The notes under the pieces were generated by a model. That model was not told the DNA's origin and searched no databases. It saw nothing but the letters and a program-made list of their open reading frames with translations. DNA of 10,500 nucleotides. It comes from a virus. Taxonomy: Duplodnaviria; Heunggongvirae; Uroviricota; Caudoviricetes. The stretch spans positions 1-10,500 of the IMG/VR virus record IMGVR_UViG_2703718869_000008, one strand, 5' to 3'. Shown here one piece after another: positions 2,935-8,048 of this stretch; the stretch's first letter is position 1, and every line of letters starts with the position of its first letter. Position numbers and translations under genes: made by a program.

Positions 2935-3303
2935 CTACTTGGTGGTATTTGCCTTCGATGAGGCAAGATAGGCATCAAGATCACTTTTTAGGTAAATAAC
3001 CTTTCTACCGATTTTTAAAAAAGGTATTCGAACTTTTCCTGTGCTAGCCCAATTAGCTAAGGTTTGCGCTTCTACGCCGATATAGGCTGCGGCGTCTTCT
3101 CTATTCATTTTTTCATGTTGTTCTGACAGAATACTCGTTGCTTCAAAATCAAAGCCCAGCTTTTCAAAGGCATAGATAATAGAGCCCAAAGCCATTTGTT
3201 TAACTGTTCTGTAGTTACTGCTTTCAACTTGGCTTAATGCAGTTTTTGCTGCTTCAATCACCACAAGCCAGGCATCTCGTTGGTTGTCGATACTGCCATC
3301 CAT
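2935..3303 (-). CDS. Helix-turn-helix DNA-binding protein (Xis/AlpA/MerR-like HTH in C-terminal half), first gene of the leftward early operon
   Basis: ATG at 3303 preceded by AGGAGA-N6 (track start GTG at 3309 abuts the RBS). C-terminal segment AAAYIGVEAQTLANWASTGKVRIPFLKIGRKVIYLKSDLDAYL resembles small excisionase-type HTH domains. Low-GC gene, unlike lambda N (not Arg-rich). Confidence 0.65.
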   Translation of the reverse strand: MDGSIDNQRDAWLVVIEAAKTALSQVESSNYRTVKQMALGSIIYAFEKLGFDFEATSILSEQHEKMNREDAAAYIGVEAQTLANWASTGKVRIPFLKIGRKVIYLKSDLDAYLASSKANTTK

Positions 3304-3361
3304 ATTCACTCTCCTGCCATGTGCGAATCATCCGGTCATTCATACGCCACCGTCGGCTACT

Positions 3362-3480: not shown

Positions 3481-4107
3481 CTAGAGTTCGTATTGAACTC
3501 CTTTGACTACACCAATGATGAGGCAATTACCATTGATCGGGATGTTGGGGTACCGGGGATTTAATGGCACTAAAAACTTTTGAGGGCCATCGATAACTAA
3601 TTTTTTTACTGTGGCTTCGTTTGTTCCATCAAGTCTAGCGATGACTATTTTTCCATGCCGGGGTTCTGCATCAGGATCTACAATCACTGTTGCGCCTTCT
3701 GGTATTGTTGGGAGGCCGTTAGGGTTAGTCATGGAGTCGCCTTTAACCTCCAATGCAAATGAGTTATCACCAATCTTTAATGATGTATCTACCCACTTGT
3801 CTACTTCACTAAACACTTCTGCTGTCCTGCACTCAGTAAACTGCCCAGCCTGAACCCACGAGATTACAGGAACTCTGCGCATGTTTGTGACGAGTTTGCC
3901 TTCAAACTCCGCACCATAAAGAATGTAATCTATTGACGTATTGAAGAACTTCGCTAATTTTGAAAGTGCTTCCCCTCCAGGGACATTGATGTCTTTCTCC
4001 CAGTACCCCACAGCAACGTCACTTACTCCACAAAATTTACCCAATTCTTTCTGGGACGTTCTGGTAACTCTTCTCAGAGCTTTTATACGCTGACCAACCG
4101 TTTCCAT
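3481..4107 (-). CDS. cI: Phage CI-type repressor (N-terminal XRE-family HTH plus C-terminal S24 LexA-like autopeptidase domain)
   Basis: 208 aa. N-terminal HTH (QKELGKFCGVSDVAVGYWE), GDSM serine motif and downstream KK lysine motif typical of RecA-stimulated self-cleaving repressors. Divergent from a cro-like gene. Confidence 0.9.
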   Translation of the reverse strand: METVGQRIKALRRVTRTSQKELGKFCGVSDVAVGYWEKDINVPGGEALSKLAKFFNTSIDYILYGAEFEGKLVTNMRRVPVISWVQAGQFTECRTAEVFSEVDKWVDTSLKIGDNSFALEVKGDSMTNPNGLPTIPEGATVIVDPDAEPRHGKIVIARLDGTNEATVKKLVIDGPQKFLVPLNPRYPNIPINGNCLIIGVVKGVQYEL

Positions 4108-4442: not shown

Positions 4443-5027
4443 GTGGGTAAAGAACCTGAATGGAAAGTTGATAAGCAACCAGCATGGCTGGTGGCAGCAA
4501 TACGAAGAACGATTGCTGATTTACCTCATGGCTATGAGGAAGCAGCAGAAATTCTTGGTTTGTATAAATCTGATGATATCACCCCAGCAAAAGATCAATT
4601 GCATAACAGACTGCGTAGCGGTGGGGATCAAATTTTTCCACTTGAGTGGGCCATGGTTTTACAGGATGCCAGTGGTACCAGGCATGTAACGGATGCAATA
4701 GCCCGTCGTAGTAATGGGGTGTTTGTGCCGCTGGTGGTCATTGATGACATTGACAATGGTGACATTAATCAGCGGCTGATGGAGTCAATAGAATGGATTG
4801 GCAAGCATTCCCAGTACTTACGCAAGGCAACTGCTGATGGAGTTATTGACCAAGCTGAGCGTGAGCAAATCGAAGAGAACAGCTACCAAGTAATGGCGAA
4901 GTGGCAGGAGCATTTAACACTGTTATTTCGTGTTTTTTGTGCGCCGGAAAAGAGTAACGCCCGCGAGTGTGCAGCTCCGGGCGTCGTGGCGTCGATTGCT
5001 TCTGGTTGTGGAGAAACTAACGCATGA
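4443..5027 (+). CDS. Hypothetical early regulator in the cII position (possibly CII/YdaT-like); start uncertain
   Basis: Track ORF 4329..5027 overlaps cro in another frame. In-frame GTG at 4443 is preceded by GAGGG-N7; alternatives are ATG 4386 or 4398 without a good RBS. Stop overlaps the next start (ATGA). Function inferred only from position. Confidence 0.55.
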   Translation: MGKEPEWKVDKQPAWLVAAIRRTIADLPHGYEEAAEILGLYKSDDITPAKDQLHNRLRSGGDQIFPLEWAMVLQDASGTRHVTDAIARRSNGVFVPLVVIDDIDNGDINQRLMESIEWIGKHSQYLRKATADGVIDQAEREQIEENSYQVMAKWQEHLTLLFRVFCAPEKSNARECAAPGVVASIASGCGETNA

Positions 5028-5860
5028 ACAGTTTAACGGCAAATAACCGTTTGTCGCAACAGCTGGTGTTCAGTGTCGCTGAACACCTGTTGTTACGGCA
5101 TGAATGCAGATTACCAAATCACCTGGCTGTAAGTAACCACAGAGAACTTTACCTGACTGTGGGGGGCGAGTTGTGCTGGAACTTAACCGCTGGTTTCGTG
5201 ACGGAAGAGGGCTTTATGTCCATGTTATTCGTTGGGAGCCAGAAACACAGCGCGTTATCTATCTTCGCAAAGACTACCCGCATGAGTGCTTTAGTCCTTT
5301 GTGGAAATTCAGGCGTGATTTTGTTGAGTGTGAAGGACCACCAGCACATTGATTCTGCCATTCCGGGACGTTACACTGTTCAGGCACCTTATAAAGCGGG
5401 TGTCGGGATTGGCGTCCTGGAATTGCATACGGCGACAATTGGCGCGTTAGCGTCTTTTTTGTTGCTACAACTCAGCTATACCCAAATTATGGTGGGCTGG
5501 GTGGGGGCACCGAAAGGTGCGCCGGTTTCCGTATGCGCCGGTTACGCCAACCCTGCTCAGTTCACCACCAGCGAAATTGGCGTTTCCGGTGGTGGAAGTT
5601 ATCCATTGCATACGGAGGCTGCCATCATGGCTACTGTCCCAGCCCTCTCTCGTCTGAATGATGAAGACTTACATAAACTCAGTTATGTAACAACTGCACT
5701 ACGTGCTCTGCGCAAGGTAACTCTTTCGGATCCGCAGGCGCATCAGGTTTTGGTAGAAACCCTTCTTAACTTGCAGGCTGAACGTATTCGTCTGGCGGAT
5801 AAGGCTAATTTTCATATTCACCGTCTCCTGAATATCAGCGGAGGGCATCGTCATGCTTAA
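5024..5860 (+). CDS. Hypothetical protein (278 aa), unknown function
   Basis: Long stop-free frame; ATGA overlap with the upstream gene and ATGCTTAA overlap with the downstream gene. C-terminal 75 aa look clearly protein-like, but the middle is compositionally odd and an alternative frame is also open (see findings). Confidence 0.5.
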   Translation: MNSLTANNRLSQQLVFSVAEHLLLRHECRLPNHLAVSNHRELYLTVGGELCWNLTAGFVTEEGFMSMLFVGSQKHSALSIFAKTTRMSALVLCGNSGVILLSVKDHQHIDSAIPGRYTVQAPYKAGVGIGVLELHTATIGALASFLLLQLSYTQIMVGWVGAPKGAPVSVCAGYANPAQFTTSEIGVSGGGSYPLHTEAAIMATVPALSRLNDEDLHKLSYVTTALRALRKVTLSDPQAHQVLVETLLNLQAERIRLADKANFHIHRLLNISGGHRHA

Positions 5861-6089
5861 TCCGTTGATCCTCAATATTTGCCGTTTGCTTCAGCGTAAA
5901 AAAACATCAATTCCTACAGTTGGGCAGTGGTACACCACGCCTGCAGGGCATGTTCTACGTGTCAGCCTGGTTGACCGTGAATGTCAGAAGGTGATTTGTG
6001 AACCGCTGGGCCGTAATTACCGCGTCAGTATGCCGCTTATAGCCTTTCGCTCCGGAAAAAACATGAAGCATCTCGGAGGTGCAGCATGA
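5853..6089 (+). CDS. Hypothetical small protein (78 aa)
   Basis: GGAGGG-N7-ATG RBS and translational coupling on both sides (overlaps upstream stop; ATGA overlap with the initiator gene). Confidence 0.6.
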   Translation: MLNPLILNICRLLQRKKTSIPTVGQWYTTPAGHVLRVSLVDRECQKVICEPLGRNYRVSMPLIAFRSGKNMKHLGGAA

Positions 6090-6904
6090 GTATGGAGCTG
6101 ATGGTTAAAGCGATGAAAATTCGAGTGGGTAATCCATTGCGAAAACTGGTTCTGATCAAGCTGGCTGATAATGCCAGCGATCAGGGTGAGTGCTGGCCCA
6201 GCTACCAGCATATTGCTGACCAGTGCGAGATTAGCAAACGTTCTGTGATGAATCATATTGCGGCCCTTTGTGATTCCGGGCTGGTAAAAAAAGTCACCCG
6301 GAAAGGTGAAAAAGGTAACTCAAGTAATATCTATCTCCTTCATCTTGATGGTGCAGGAGATTCACTAGGGGGTAGTGCAAATAATTCACTATCTAGTGCA
6401 GCAAATTCACCAGGTAGTGCAGGAGTTGCACCAGGGGGTGGTGCAGGAGATTCACCCAGAACCAGTCACTCTTTTGAACCAGTCAAAGAACCAGTCAATG
6501 AACCAATAGCTGTTGGTGCATCTGCTGATGAGTCCGTGCGAGTTCGTTCAAACCGACCGGAATACTCTCCGGAGTTTGAGCAGGCATGGCTGGCATACCC
6601 CAAACGTGCTGGTGGCAATTCAAAATCTGCAGCCTTCAAAGCCTGGAAAGCTCGTTTGAATGAGGGGGTAAAACCCGAAACCATGCTGGAAGGTGTGAAA
6701 CGCTACGCGGGCTGGGTATCTGCGATGGGTAACAGCGGCACACAATTTGTGAAACAGGCTGTCACGTTCTTTGGTCCGGATCGTCATTTCGAAGAATCCT
6801 GGGAAGTTCCTGCGGTATCTGCAGCCAGACGCGAGGACCCGTACTTCAAAGCCAGTTACGACAACGTGGACTACAGCCAGATCCCGGCAGGATTCAGGGG
6901 GTGA
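6086..6904 (+). CDS. Phage replication initiator (lambda O-like organisation: N-terminal HTH, internal iteron-encoded Gly/Ser/Ala linker, C-terminal domain)
   Basis: GGAGG-N7-ATG. N-terminal HTH segment (LVLIKLADNASDQGECWPSYQHIADQCEISKRSVMNHIAALCDSGLV) typical of phage replication initiators. The middle of the gene carries tandem iterons, as in lambda O. Not the lambda O sequence itself. Confidence 0.72.
   Translation: MSMELMVKAMKIRVGNPLRKLVLIKLADNASDQGECWPSYQHIADQCEISKRSVMNHIAALCDSGLVKKVTRKGEKGNSSNIYLLHLDGAGDSLGGSANNSLSSAANSPGSAGVAPGGGAGDSPRTSHSFEPVKEPVNEPIAVGASADESVRVRSNRPEYSPEFEQAWLAYPKRAGGNSKSAAFKAWKARLNEGVKPETMLEGVKRYAGWVSAMGNSGTQFVKQAVTFFGPDRHFEESWEVPAVSAARREDPYFKASYDNVDYSQIPAGFRG
6347..6506 (+). 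repeat. Putative replication origin: five 15-bp iterons GTGCA-N5-T(T/G)CAC at 21-24 bp spacing, then three to four GAACCAGTCA repeats
   Basis: Seen directly: iterons start at 6351, 6375, 6396, 6417 and 6441 (first and fifth identical: GTGCAGGAGATTCAC). GAACCAGTCA occurs at 6459, 6476 and 6488 with a degenerate copy at 6500. Located inside the initiator gene, analogous to ori-lambda within O. Confidence 0.55.
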
Positions 6905-6906
6905 TC

Positions 6907-7395
6907 ATGAGTCTTTTGAATGAAGTTCAGAAATTCATTGAAGCCCATCCGGGGTGTACTTCCGGAGACATTGCGGATGCTTTTGCAGGTTACTCACGGC
7001 AGCGCGTTCTGCAGTCAGCAAGCAAGTTACGTCAGAGTGGGCGTGTGGCTCACCGTTGTGAAGGAGATACACGCAGACATTTCCCGCGCCTGACTGAGAG
7101 AGCGCAGGAACCGGAACCACAACCAGTTCGAGAAACCAGACCTGTGCGCAATTTCTATGTCGGCACTAACGATCCACGGGTGATTTTGTGCCTGACCCGC
7201 CAGGCTGAAGAACTGGAGTCCAGGGGCTTATACCGTCGTGCTGCAACCGTGTGGATGGCGGCATTCCGTGAAAGCCACTCCCAGCCAGAACAAAACAATT
7301 TTCTGGCGCGTCGTGAGCGGTGCTTACGGAAAAGCAGCAAGCGCGCTGCATCGGGTGAAGAGTGGTATCTGTCAGGGAATTACGTGGGGGCTTAA
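6907..7395 (+). CDS. Putative PerC/Pch-family transcriptional regulator with extra N-terminal domain
   Basis: GGGGG-N5-ATG at 6907 (track start GTG 6901 overlaps the upstream stop). C-terminal AEELESRGLYRRAATVWMAAF resembles the PerC signature (LE-x-GL-W/Y-RRAA-x-W) as recalled. Stop overlaps the next start (TAATG). Family assignment is tentative. Confidence 0.5.
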   Translation: MSLLNEVQKFIEAHPGCTSGDIADAFAGYSRQRVLQSASKLRQSGRVAHRCEGDTRRHFPRLTERAQEPEPQPVRETRPVRNFYVGTNDPRVILCLTRQAEELESRGLYRRAATVWMAAFRESHSQPEQNNFLARRERCLRKSSKRAASGEEWYLSGNYVGA

Positions 7396-8048
7396 TGAGT
7401 AATAAATATTGCCAGGCGCTGGTGGAACTGCGGAACAAACCAGCCCATGAACTGAAGGAAGTGGGCGATCAGTGGCGCACGCCGGACAACATTTTCTGGG
7501 GAATTAACACCCTGTTTGGCCCGTTTGTTCTGGATCTGTTTACTGACGGTGATAACGCCAAATGTGCCGCGTATTACACGGCGGAAGATAACGCGCTGGC
7601 GCATGACTGGTCAGAACGTCTTGCGGAGCTTAAAGGTGCTGCCTTTGGTAATCCCCCATACAGCCGCGCCAGTCAGCATGAGGGGAAATACATCACTGGC
7701 ATGCGTTACATCATGAAGCATGCCAGTGCCATGCGTGATAAAGGCGGGCGCTATGTTTTCCTGATCAAAGCTGCCACCAGCGAAGTGTGGTGGCCGGAAG
7801 ATGCAGATCATATTACTTTTATTCGCGGGCGTATTGGTTTTGAACTGCCTGTCTGGTTTATCCCGAAAGACGAGAAGCAGGTACCGACAGGAGCTTTTTT
7901 CGCTGGTGCTATTGCTGTTTTTGACAAGACCTGGAAGGGACCGGCAATCAGCTACATTGGGCGCGATGAACTTGAGGCATGTGGTGAGGCGTTTCTGGCG
8001 CAGGTTCGCCAGCAGGCGGAAAAACTGGTCAGGGAGATGGCTGCATGA
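7395..8048 (+). CDS. Phage-type DNA N6-adenine methyltransferase (Dam family), orphan
   Basis: GGGGG-N4-ATG at 7395 (track ORF starts upstream at 7362 in the same frame). Motifs WRTPD, FVLDLFTD and catalytic NPPYS are characteristic of the phage Dam family. No adjacent restriction endonuclease gene. Confidence 0.85.
   Translation: MSNKYCQALVELRNKPAHELKEVGDQWRTPDNIFWGINTLFGPFVLDLFTDGDNAKCAAYYTAEDNALAHDWSERLAELKGAAFGNPPYSRASQHEGKYITGMRYIMKHASAMRDKGGRYVFLIKAATSEVWWPEDADHITFIRGRIGFELPVWFIPKDEKQVPTGAFFAGAIAVFDKTWKGPAISYIGRDELEACGEAFLAQVRQQAEKLVREMAA

Follow-up and report, generated by a model that had tools for sequence, protein, structure and literature searches.

A probable replication origin on the lambda plan inside the gene of an unrelated winged-helix initiator of SfV-like lambdoid prophages

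Introduction

Repeated DNA lying inside a protein-coding gene raises the question of whether the repeats are maintained as DNA, for instance as a replication origin, or simply follow from the peptide that they encode. We addressed this question for a phage replication initiator gene (272 amino acids, 6086..6904, plus strand) located in the first 10,500 nucleotides of the IMG/VR virus record IMGVR_UViG_2703718869_000008 (Caudoviricetes); this whole 10.5-kb stretch, hereafter the window, corresponds to the early region of an SfV-like lambdoid prophage (SfV/mEp460/Shiga toxin (Stx) "Eru6" type). The gene is part of the early-right operon, with cI, cro and a CII-like gene upstream of it, and carries five dyad repeats (iterons) followed by three direct repeats, which a first-pass annotation made from the sequence alone had described as an origin-like array embedded in the initiator gene and mirroring the lambda origin (ori) within gene O.

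Lambdoid origins are known to vary in iteron number, 4 or 6, and the lambda O protein binds AT-rich single strands (PMC7466680). In other replicons, plasmid Rep proteins and DnaA read the short repeats (13-mers) of unwinding elements sequence-specifically as single strands (PMC4980987). Regarding the Eru phages, the literature states that nothing is known about their replication proteins, and iterons are not mentioned (PMC8044961, PMC8951638). Here, we present comparative evidence indicating that the repeats of the window probably constitute a phage replication origin organized on the lambda plan, inside the gene of an unrelated winged-helix initiator that would bind them.

Results and discussion

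An array of dyad iterons within the initiator gene

The pattern GTGCANNNNNTKCAC (GTGCA-N5-TKCAC) was found on the plus strand at 6351, 6375, 6396, 6417 and 6441, and at no other place in the 10.5-kb window. Since the palindromic fourth copy also matches the minus strand, the count amounts to 6, with 0.07 expected from shuffled sequences, none of 200 of which reached 6 matches. The five 15-bp iterons are GTGCAGGAGATTCAC (iteron 1, 6351..6365), GTGCAAATAATTCAC (iteron 2, 6375..6389), GTGCAGCAAATTCAC (iteron 3, 6396..6410), GTGCAGGAGTTGCAC (iteron 4, 6417..6431, with perfectly palindromic arms and matched on both strands) and again GTGCAGGAGATTCAC (iteron 5, 6441..6455), all annotated on the plus strand, with start-to-start spacings of 24/21/21/24 bp, i.e., about two helical turns. 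Behind them lie three exact copies of the 10-bp sequence GAACCAGTCA (6459-6468, 6476-6485 and 6488-6497; 6459..6497 as a whole, plus strand), spaced by 17 and 12 bp (0.65 matches expected at up to one mismatch), and, after the third copy, the partial repeat GAACCA (6500-6505, plus strand).

All iterons and GAACCAGTCA copies are inside the initiator open reading frame (ORF), in the linker-coding part between the N- and C-terminal domains. The array region of the ORF translates to GAGDSLGGSANNSLSSAANSPGSAGVAPGGGAGDSP and then RTSHSFEPVKEPVNEP, the per-unit peptides being GAGDSLGG, SANNSLS, SAANSPG, SAGVAPGG and GAGDSP, and residues 91-156 are disordered in an AlphaFold2 model (predicted local distance difference test score, pLDDT, <50). 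What the first-pass annotation had reported on the anatomy of the locus, namely five GTGCA-N5-TKCAC dyads about two turns apart, three exact direct repeats behind them, and their translation into a linker within a 272-residue initiator, is therefore upheld by the pattern counts, the coordinates, the translation and the model.

The extra bases of the two 24-bp spacings correspond to a G run (GGGGG, 6368-6372 and 6434-6438). When one mismatch was allowed, two further iteron-like sites appeared in the 10.5 kb (1.57 expected); one such site, GTGAAGGAGATACAC at 7058-7072 (plus strand), lies inside the PerC-like gene and is at about chance level. No second repeat cluster was found in the 10.5-kb early region, nor was any DnaA box found in the window; a promoter-like site was absent from 5800-7400; comparison by eye revealed no convincing match to IHF, Fis, CRP or Chi sites; Rfam holds no family over the repeat region; and single-strand folding of 6340-6510 was no better than that of shuffles (z = -0.78).

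The initiator belongs to the HTH_36 family and is widespread in Escherichia coli

The initiator matches Pfam HTH_36 (PF13730) with an E-value of 2.8e-11 and 43.5 bits, above the cut-off of 25, and PHROG 270 ("replication initiation protein") with 1.1e-88 across residues 3-271. At the DNA level, the gene is 97.8-99.6% identical to annotated replication genes of SfV (orf39), mEp460 and phage 2H10, and the replication genes of phage cdtI and several Stx2 phages are likewise 98-99.6% identical to it. With the type phage of Eru6, Stx2a_WGPS2 (AP012537), identity is 98.4% over 819 bp, placing the gene in Eru6. A match to the gene was found in 2718 of 5426 complete E. coli genomes, with at least 80% of the gene in 897; partial copies are therefore present in many E. 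coli chromosomes.

The AlphaFold2 model predicts an N-terminal winged-helix domain (residues 1-87; 6086..6346, plus strand) composed of helices 3-11, 17-29, 40-47 and 51-63 (pLDDT ~77-90) and a beta-hairpin wing at 67-85 (strands 67-73 and 79-85), where helix 51-63 (6236-6274, plus strand) is the predicted recognition helix; the disordered stretch separates this domain from the C-terminal helices. Foldseek searches with the model returned generic winged-helix matches only, and a sequence search of solved structures gave nothing relevant.

Relatives keep the iterons as DNA and not as peptide

Relatives, about 90 in total, were retrieved by the N-terminal protein alone, with two queries, namely its first 88 residues for tblastn and, for a scan of one genome per species, eleven relatives aligned over their first 90 residues; because the linker DNA was used in neither search, its features in the relatives are not a retrieval artefact. 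The tblastn search of phage genomes identified relatives at 54-72% identity in phages of Vibrio, Klebsiella, Salmonella, Serratia, Aggregatibacter and E. coli, and the species scan yielded 80 loci in Enterobacter, Pseudomonas, Proteus, Rahnella, Xenorhabdus, Marinomonas, Aeromonas, Shewanella, Providencia, Erwinia, Aliivibrio, Marinobacter and others.

Nearly every relative carries its own array of 2-8 dyad repeats right behind the winged-helix domain, five being the commonest number, and 291 of about 320 spacings measure 21, 22, 23 or 24 bp. The peptides encoded by these arrays are wholly unlike one another, including GMPADST repeated four times in phage S1249, PPMPSDGT in RothC, GGAGAA in Stx2a_F451 and PSDxMSP in Vibrio D67. 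Spacings that break the triplet frame (22 or 23 bp) occur at least once in 52 of 85 relatives; arrays of Pseudomonas or Xenorhabdus typically measure 23/22/21/24 bp. Of the main-class iterons, 43 of 306 stand in another codon phase. Given the variable frame, the unlike peptides and the conserved dyads, the iteron motif is therefore maintained as DNA and not as peptide, the opposite of the outcome named beforehand as contradicting an origin, i.e., a conserved linker with loss of the nucleotide periodicity. In the iteron logo of the relatives the arms are constant and the central 5 bp hold 0.2-0.9 bits; the high scores of the arms are partly circular, since sites were chosen by their arm match.

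The number of units also varies at close range: near-identical E. coli initiators carry 1, 2, 5, 7, 8 or 9 of them, and phage cdtI has eight iterons. Among 80 viral contigs at 98-100% identity, copy number is the only variation, with too few substitutions for an arm-versus-spacer comparison. The E. coli proteins P0001, P0009, P0020, P0029 and P0042 have 9, 8, 7, 2 or 1 linker units, and the two-unit form is found on 64 contigs.

With respect to the spacers, a run of at least four G or C on either strand precedes the last iteron in 78 of 85 relatives, and the last iteron spacing is 24 bp in 71 of 85. Some species-level relatives, presumably decaying prophages, have truncated or frame-shifted initiator genes of 7-201 amino acids (loci L094, L112, L144 and L148).

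Iteron half-sites co-vary with the predicted recognition helix

Half-site sequences differ among relatives, and they do so together with residues 52, 55 and 56, all of which sit on the predicted helix 51-63. The counts given here ignore shared ancestry. In all 66 loci with GTGMA/TKCAC iterons, residue 52 is R and residue 55 is M, I or V, and R56 occurs in none; conversely, R56 is found in 6/6 loci with GTGAC/GTCAC iterons. S or A at position 52 together with R55 characterizes the 10 loci with TGCCR/TRGCA and TAGGC/AAGCA iterons (10/10), and K55 the 3 loci with GGGCA/TGMCC and GGGCG/TAACC iterons. The GTGAC/GTCAC class comprises three lineages, namely Erwinia/Izhakiella, Vibrio D67 and Aliivibrio. 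The nearest outside relatives of the Erwinia/Izhakiella pair share 81-83% identity with it and fall in the GTGMA class, the helix differing at N56R and A60D, and the closest relative of Vibrio D67 overall is likewise a GTGMA-class locus.

This repeated association of half-site and helix across lineages, read from sequences, supports the prediction that the array is bound by the initiator's own N-terminal domain. The comparison of iterons with N-terminal domains in related prophages, as the first-pass annotation had suggested, thus favors its reading, since the design of the array is kept and the half-sites co-vary. If true, the natural pairs N56/GTGMA, R56/GTGAC and S52+R55/TGCCR would constitute a ready-made recognition code for a winged-helix initiator.

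A conserved box adjoins the last iteron

The GAACCAGTCA repeats, previously regarded as a mere follow-on to the iterons, proved to be part of the most conserved DNA element of the module, a box of roughly 37 bp (6456..6494, plus strand; CCAGAACCAGTCACTCTTTTGAACCAGTCAAAGAACC). In nearly all relatives that are read in the register of the window, two bases (mostly CC) separate the last iteron from the box, whose family consensus is CCAGAAYCAGTCACTCTyyTGAAYCAGTCAnnGAAC. Its 28-mer core has at most 3 mismatches in most of the 80 species-level relatives and none in many of them, from Xenorhabdus to Pseudomonas, and information content is high from -3 to +36. At residues identical to those of the window, codon identity reaches 721/780 (0.92) in the box versus 2021/4957 (0.41) in the N-terminal domain, the box value being the higher one in 78/78 loci; this conservation at the DNA level spans Vibrio, Shewanella, Pseudomonas and E. 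coli. Among box-bearing ORFs in viral contigs, 114 of 120 have this N-terminal family, and 5 of the 6 others are cut by the locus edge.

The internal repeat is read in more than one frame. In the window, copy 1 encodes RTSH and copies 2 and 3 encode EPVK/EPVN, and across relatives the copies stand in phase 0 (n = 132) or phase 1 (n = 81). C-to-T changes with an effect on both peptides (T to I, P to S) occurred in both copies of a locus beyond the expectation of independence, as indicated by the table for position 4 of the two copies (CC 48, TC 22, CT 4, TT 10; shared ancestry ignored). Furthermore, mEp021 (L090) and mEp013 (L091) keep the repeat as AATCAGTCA ... AACCAGTAA, with the peptide replaced by PNQSYITSKEN (gene nt ~370-400). 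The arrays of these two phages are made of 45-bp double units, with four iterons, and in two of the truncated genes mentioned above (L112 and L148) the initiator reading frame ends within the box.

As a best guess, the box would serve in strand opening or helicase entry. By analogy with the unwinding elements of plasmid Rep proteins and DnaA, the GAACCAGTCA repeats may be read as single strands, the model that we favor, although we place its chances somewhat below even. Our fuller proposal is more tentative still: the box could be a sequence-specific, non-AT-rich origin core (unwinding or helicase entry) common to many gammaproteobacterial phages, with repeats read, perhaps as single strands, by an invariant HTH_36 surface or a conserved host factor, and at the same time a joint for module exchange.

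The C-terminal domain is exchangeable and probably linked to helicase loading

The box is also the junction with interchangeable C-terminal domains. The parts encoded after it form at least 8 unrelated clusters among the relatives; at least 6 of these occur behind one and the same N-terminal/iteron class, and the C-terminal cluster of the window occurs behind 3 iteron classes. The C-terminal domain of the window (residues ~159-272; 6560..6904, plus strand) matches PHROG 1701 ("DnaD-like helicase loader") with 5e-33, and this match, the model and the neighbors in relatives suggest a putative module for recruitment of the helicase loader. A Pfam search of the C-terminal domains gave almost no matches.

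No P-like or DnaC-like gene stands next to the initiator gene of the window, as noted in the first-pass annotation and confirmed by domain annotation of the genes that follow (PerC-like, Dam, LexA-DNA-binding-domain protein and RusA). Such a gene adjoins the initiator in 44 of 71 relatives (IstB/DnaC-like in 26, lambda-P-like in 18), and in individual relative phages the next gene encodes a DnaB-like helicase or a primase-helicase. Among the 9 relatives with the C-terminal class of the window, the next gene is an IstB/DnaC-like AAA+ gene in 7 and P-like in 1, and in phiP27 the C-terminal domain of the window follows a distant HTH_36 domain and is itself followed by DnaC-like and helicase genes. 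Because the window has no loader gene while relatives of the same C-terminal class carry a DnaC-like gene, we infer that the lineage of the window uses the host DnaC and DnaB. DnaC occurs in Enterobacterales and is not known from most other Gammaproteobacteria, which would explain why loss of the phage loader is tolerable in E. coli.

Two side observations concern these genes. In phiP27 L17 (L295 1732-2658), whose C-terminal domain is nearly the same as that of the window, the repeats are of another kind, TCAGAwTCTGA with spacings of 15 and 33 bp. The gene at the position of the relatives' loader in the window (6901-7395, plus strand), annotated yfdN in E. coli genomes, appears to be a fusion of a MarR-like winged helix (residues 8-70) and PerC (residues 100-151).

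Proposed function of the origin and points that weigh against it

Taking these data together, we consider it probable that the repeats are the replication origin of the phage. For the steps of initiator binding, strand opening and helicase delivery we infer the following mechanism. Dimers of the N-terminal winged-helix domain would bind the five 15-bp dyads, the GTGMA half-sites of which have their centers 10 bp apart; because the iterons are about two helical turns apart, all dimers would lie on one face of the DNA, forming an O-some-like complex. This complex would stress the neighboring DNA, which might open at the box (6456-6494) or possibly, instead, in the AT-richer segment to the left of the array. 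The C-terminal domain would then bring the replicative helicase, presumably host DnaB together with host DnaC, since the phage encodes no loader.

Several points weigh against this interpretation. The spacings of the window itself are all multiples of three, so that the frame argument depends on the relatives, and both the partial circularity of the iteron logo and the neglect of shared ancestry in the co-variation counts detract from the comparison. No evident co-variation was observed between box variants and N-terminal sequence in the Pseudomonas clade. A strongly AT-rich tract after the array is absent, in agreement with the first-pass annotation, the G+C content (GC) being 0.43-0.48 over 6440-6540; the box has a GC of ~43% and is not the least stable segment of the window. 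The model of the C-terminal domain (helices 162-214) is of low confidence (pLDDT 58-77), and the use of host DnaC and DnaB is suggested by association only. Lastly, the literature searched contains no experimental work on this origin.

As for the site of opening, the mean nearest-neighbor stability profile of 82 loci dips most at the box (z = 1.3-1.4) and a second time just to the left of the array (z = 1.07). The window itself has its least stable, AT-richer duplex segment directly left of the array (6308..6345, not assigned to a strand; GC 0.38-0.40 over 6280-6359), and the least stable 30-mer within +/-400 bp starts ~150 bp before the box.

Other explanations of the repeats

Could the repeats simply reflect the expansion of a low-complexity Gly/Ser/Ala linker through replication slippage, with no function as DNA? 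The units of the window are all in frame and encode a disordered linker, and the 1-9 units found in E. coli are what slippage would give; however, relatives keep the dyad and period of the DNA and not the peptide, the 22- or 23-bp spacings of 52/85 arrays cause the motif to be read in different frames, the arms are constant around a variable center, and the half-sites co-vary with the recognition helix, so that we regard this explanation as highly improbable. Very little probability is likewise left to the proposal that a different DNA-binding protein recognizes the array, either a host factor or the neighboring winged-helix/PerC-like protein (6901-7395). The N-terminal MarR-like winged helix of the latter, and the resemblance of GTGxA-N5-TxCAC to many dimeric helix-turn-helix (HTH) operators, would agree with it, but neighbors vary among relatives while the array always travels with this N-terminal domain, the half-sites track residues of the initiator's own helix, and the window has no DnaA box.

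The initiator might also bind the array as an autoregulatory, copy-control or exclusion site, with synthesis starting elsewhere in the genome. Plasmid iterons do act in control (handcuffing, autorepression; PMC4980987), the array has no AT-rich tract behind it, and one single-mismatch iteron-like site is present at 7058-7072. Nevertheless, the early region holds no other repeat cluster, the array is in the middle of a gene and not at a promoter, with no promoter-like site in 5800-7400, its layout agrees with lambda ori point by point, and the last iteron always borders on a conserved box that melts easily; a pure control site is therefore unlikely in our view. The alternative for the box, namely a recombination linker that provides shared homology between origin-recognition and helicase-recruitment modules without being an origin element, is to be taken more seriously, although we still consider it rather improbable. 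The box lies exactly at the module junction, the N-terminal/iteron and C-terminal classes are combined in the several ways described above, and phiP27 has the C-terminal domain of the window behind a distant N-terminal domain; on the other hand, codon identities of 92% versus 41% across genera imply direct purifying selection in every lineage, and the internal 10-bp repeat is kept in two frames, even without its peptide (mEp021, mEp013), with copies that tend to co-change. The roles of recombination joint and origin element are compatible and do not exclude each other.

Comparison with known replication systems

The organization proposed here resembles that of lambda in several respects: the initiator gene holds the origin at its middle, where it encodes the linker between a DNA-binding N-terminal domain and a recruiting C-terminal domain; dyad iterons are about two turns apart (annotated lambda spacing 20/24/23 bp, window 24/21/21/24); iterons number 4-6 in lambda and in the lambdoid Stx phages 933W and P27 (six iterons), and their number varies between relatives; and the operon is read from the early-right promoter. 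Conversely, the initiator of the window belongs to PF13730 (HTH_36) and lambda O to PF04492, the iterons measure 15 bp instead of 18 bp, a conserved box carrying 10-bp direct repeats stands where lambda has its AT-rich tract, and no P gene follows. Homology to lambda O was rejected: lambda O matches PF04492 with 5.7e-36, whereas the N-terminal domain of the window gives no match at E = 1, and hhalign returned a probability of 7%. Thus, from the claim that the locus mirrors lambda O/ori, the architecture holds (iterons in the linker, spacing, co-variation), and the initiator falls, by sequence, outside the lambda O family.

Iteron plasmids (RK2 TrfA, F RepE, pPS10 RepA, R6K pi) also combine a winged-helix initiator with direct repeats. 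However, their Rep proteins consist of two winged-helix domains and bind asymmetric iterons as monomers, whereas the window has a single winged helix and dyad sites; a Rep_3 profile gave no match to the initiator, in which the two-winged-helix (WH1-WH2) arrangement is absent. In addition, plasmid origins are usually outside the rep gene and have DnaA boxes, none of which were found in the window. The DnaD-like or replisome-organiser initiators of phages of Gram-positive bacteria, such as lactococcal phages, have the origin within the rep gene, with direct repeats in the initiator gene. The initiator of the window shares with them the "DnaD-like helicase loader" match and a weak DnaD_N match, but the latter is below the Pfam threshold (23.2 versus 27 bits) and no DnaD C-terminal domain was detected.

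In the Eru6 region (Stx2a_WGPS2), the Rha/Ash gene precedes the gene of an HTH protein, and this published gene order agrees with that of the window, where a Rha/Ash gene is upstream of the initiator; the typing scheme names an "HTH protein" only, and gives neither origin nor iterons (PMC8951638). The literature searched, which excluded older reviews in subscription journals, holds no prior description of the origin, the recognition code or the box.

Significance of the candidate origin

The replication module is widespread, being present in SfV, mEp460, cdtI and Shiga-toxin phages of the Eru6 type. With a candidate origin located and its likely binder named, the recruitment of the host helicase by loader-less phages becomes testable, as do the determinants of incompatibility or exclusion between co-resident prophages and the effect of iteron number (1-9 units) on burst size and toxin gene dosage. 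Moreover, the conservation of the box indicates that a fixed sequence, and not mere AT-richness, can be kept beside iterons across very different host GC contents.

Other features of the early region

The remaining genes of the window are arranged as follows: a cI-type repressor gene (3481-4107, minus strand), a CII/YmfL-like gene, the Rha/Ash gene, a small ORF and the initiator gene, after which come the PerC-like, Dam, LexA-DNA-binding-domain protein, RusA and KilA-N genes. In the early-left part, genes on the minus strand encode a DUF2303 protein (1268-2092, 8e-92), a product with a weak YfbR-like 5'-deoxynucleotidase match under the Pfam cut-off (604-1167) and an HTH_17 protein (2935-3309). 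Two Rfam matches above the gathering score lie inside the Rha/Ash ORF (5024-5860), both on the plus strand: isrK (5384-5460, 58.9 bits) and C4 antisense RNA (5485-5572, 80.7 bits), which suggests antisense-RNA immunity or antirepressor control of the P1/P7 type within this gene.

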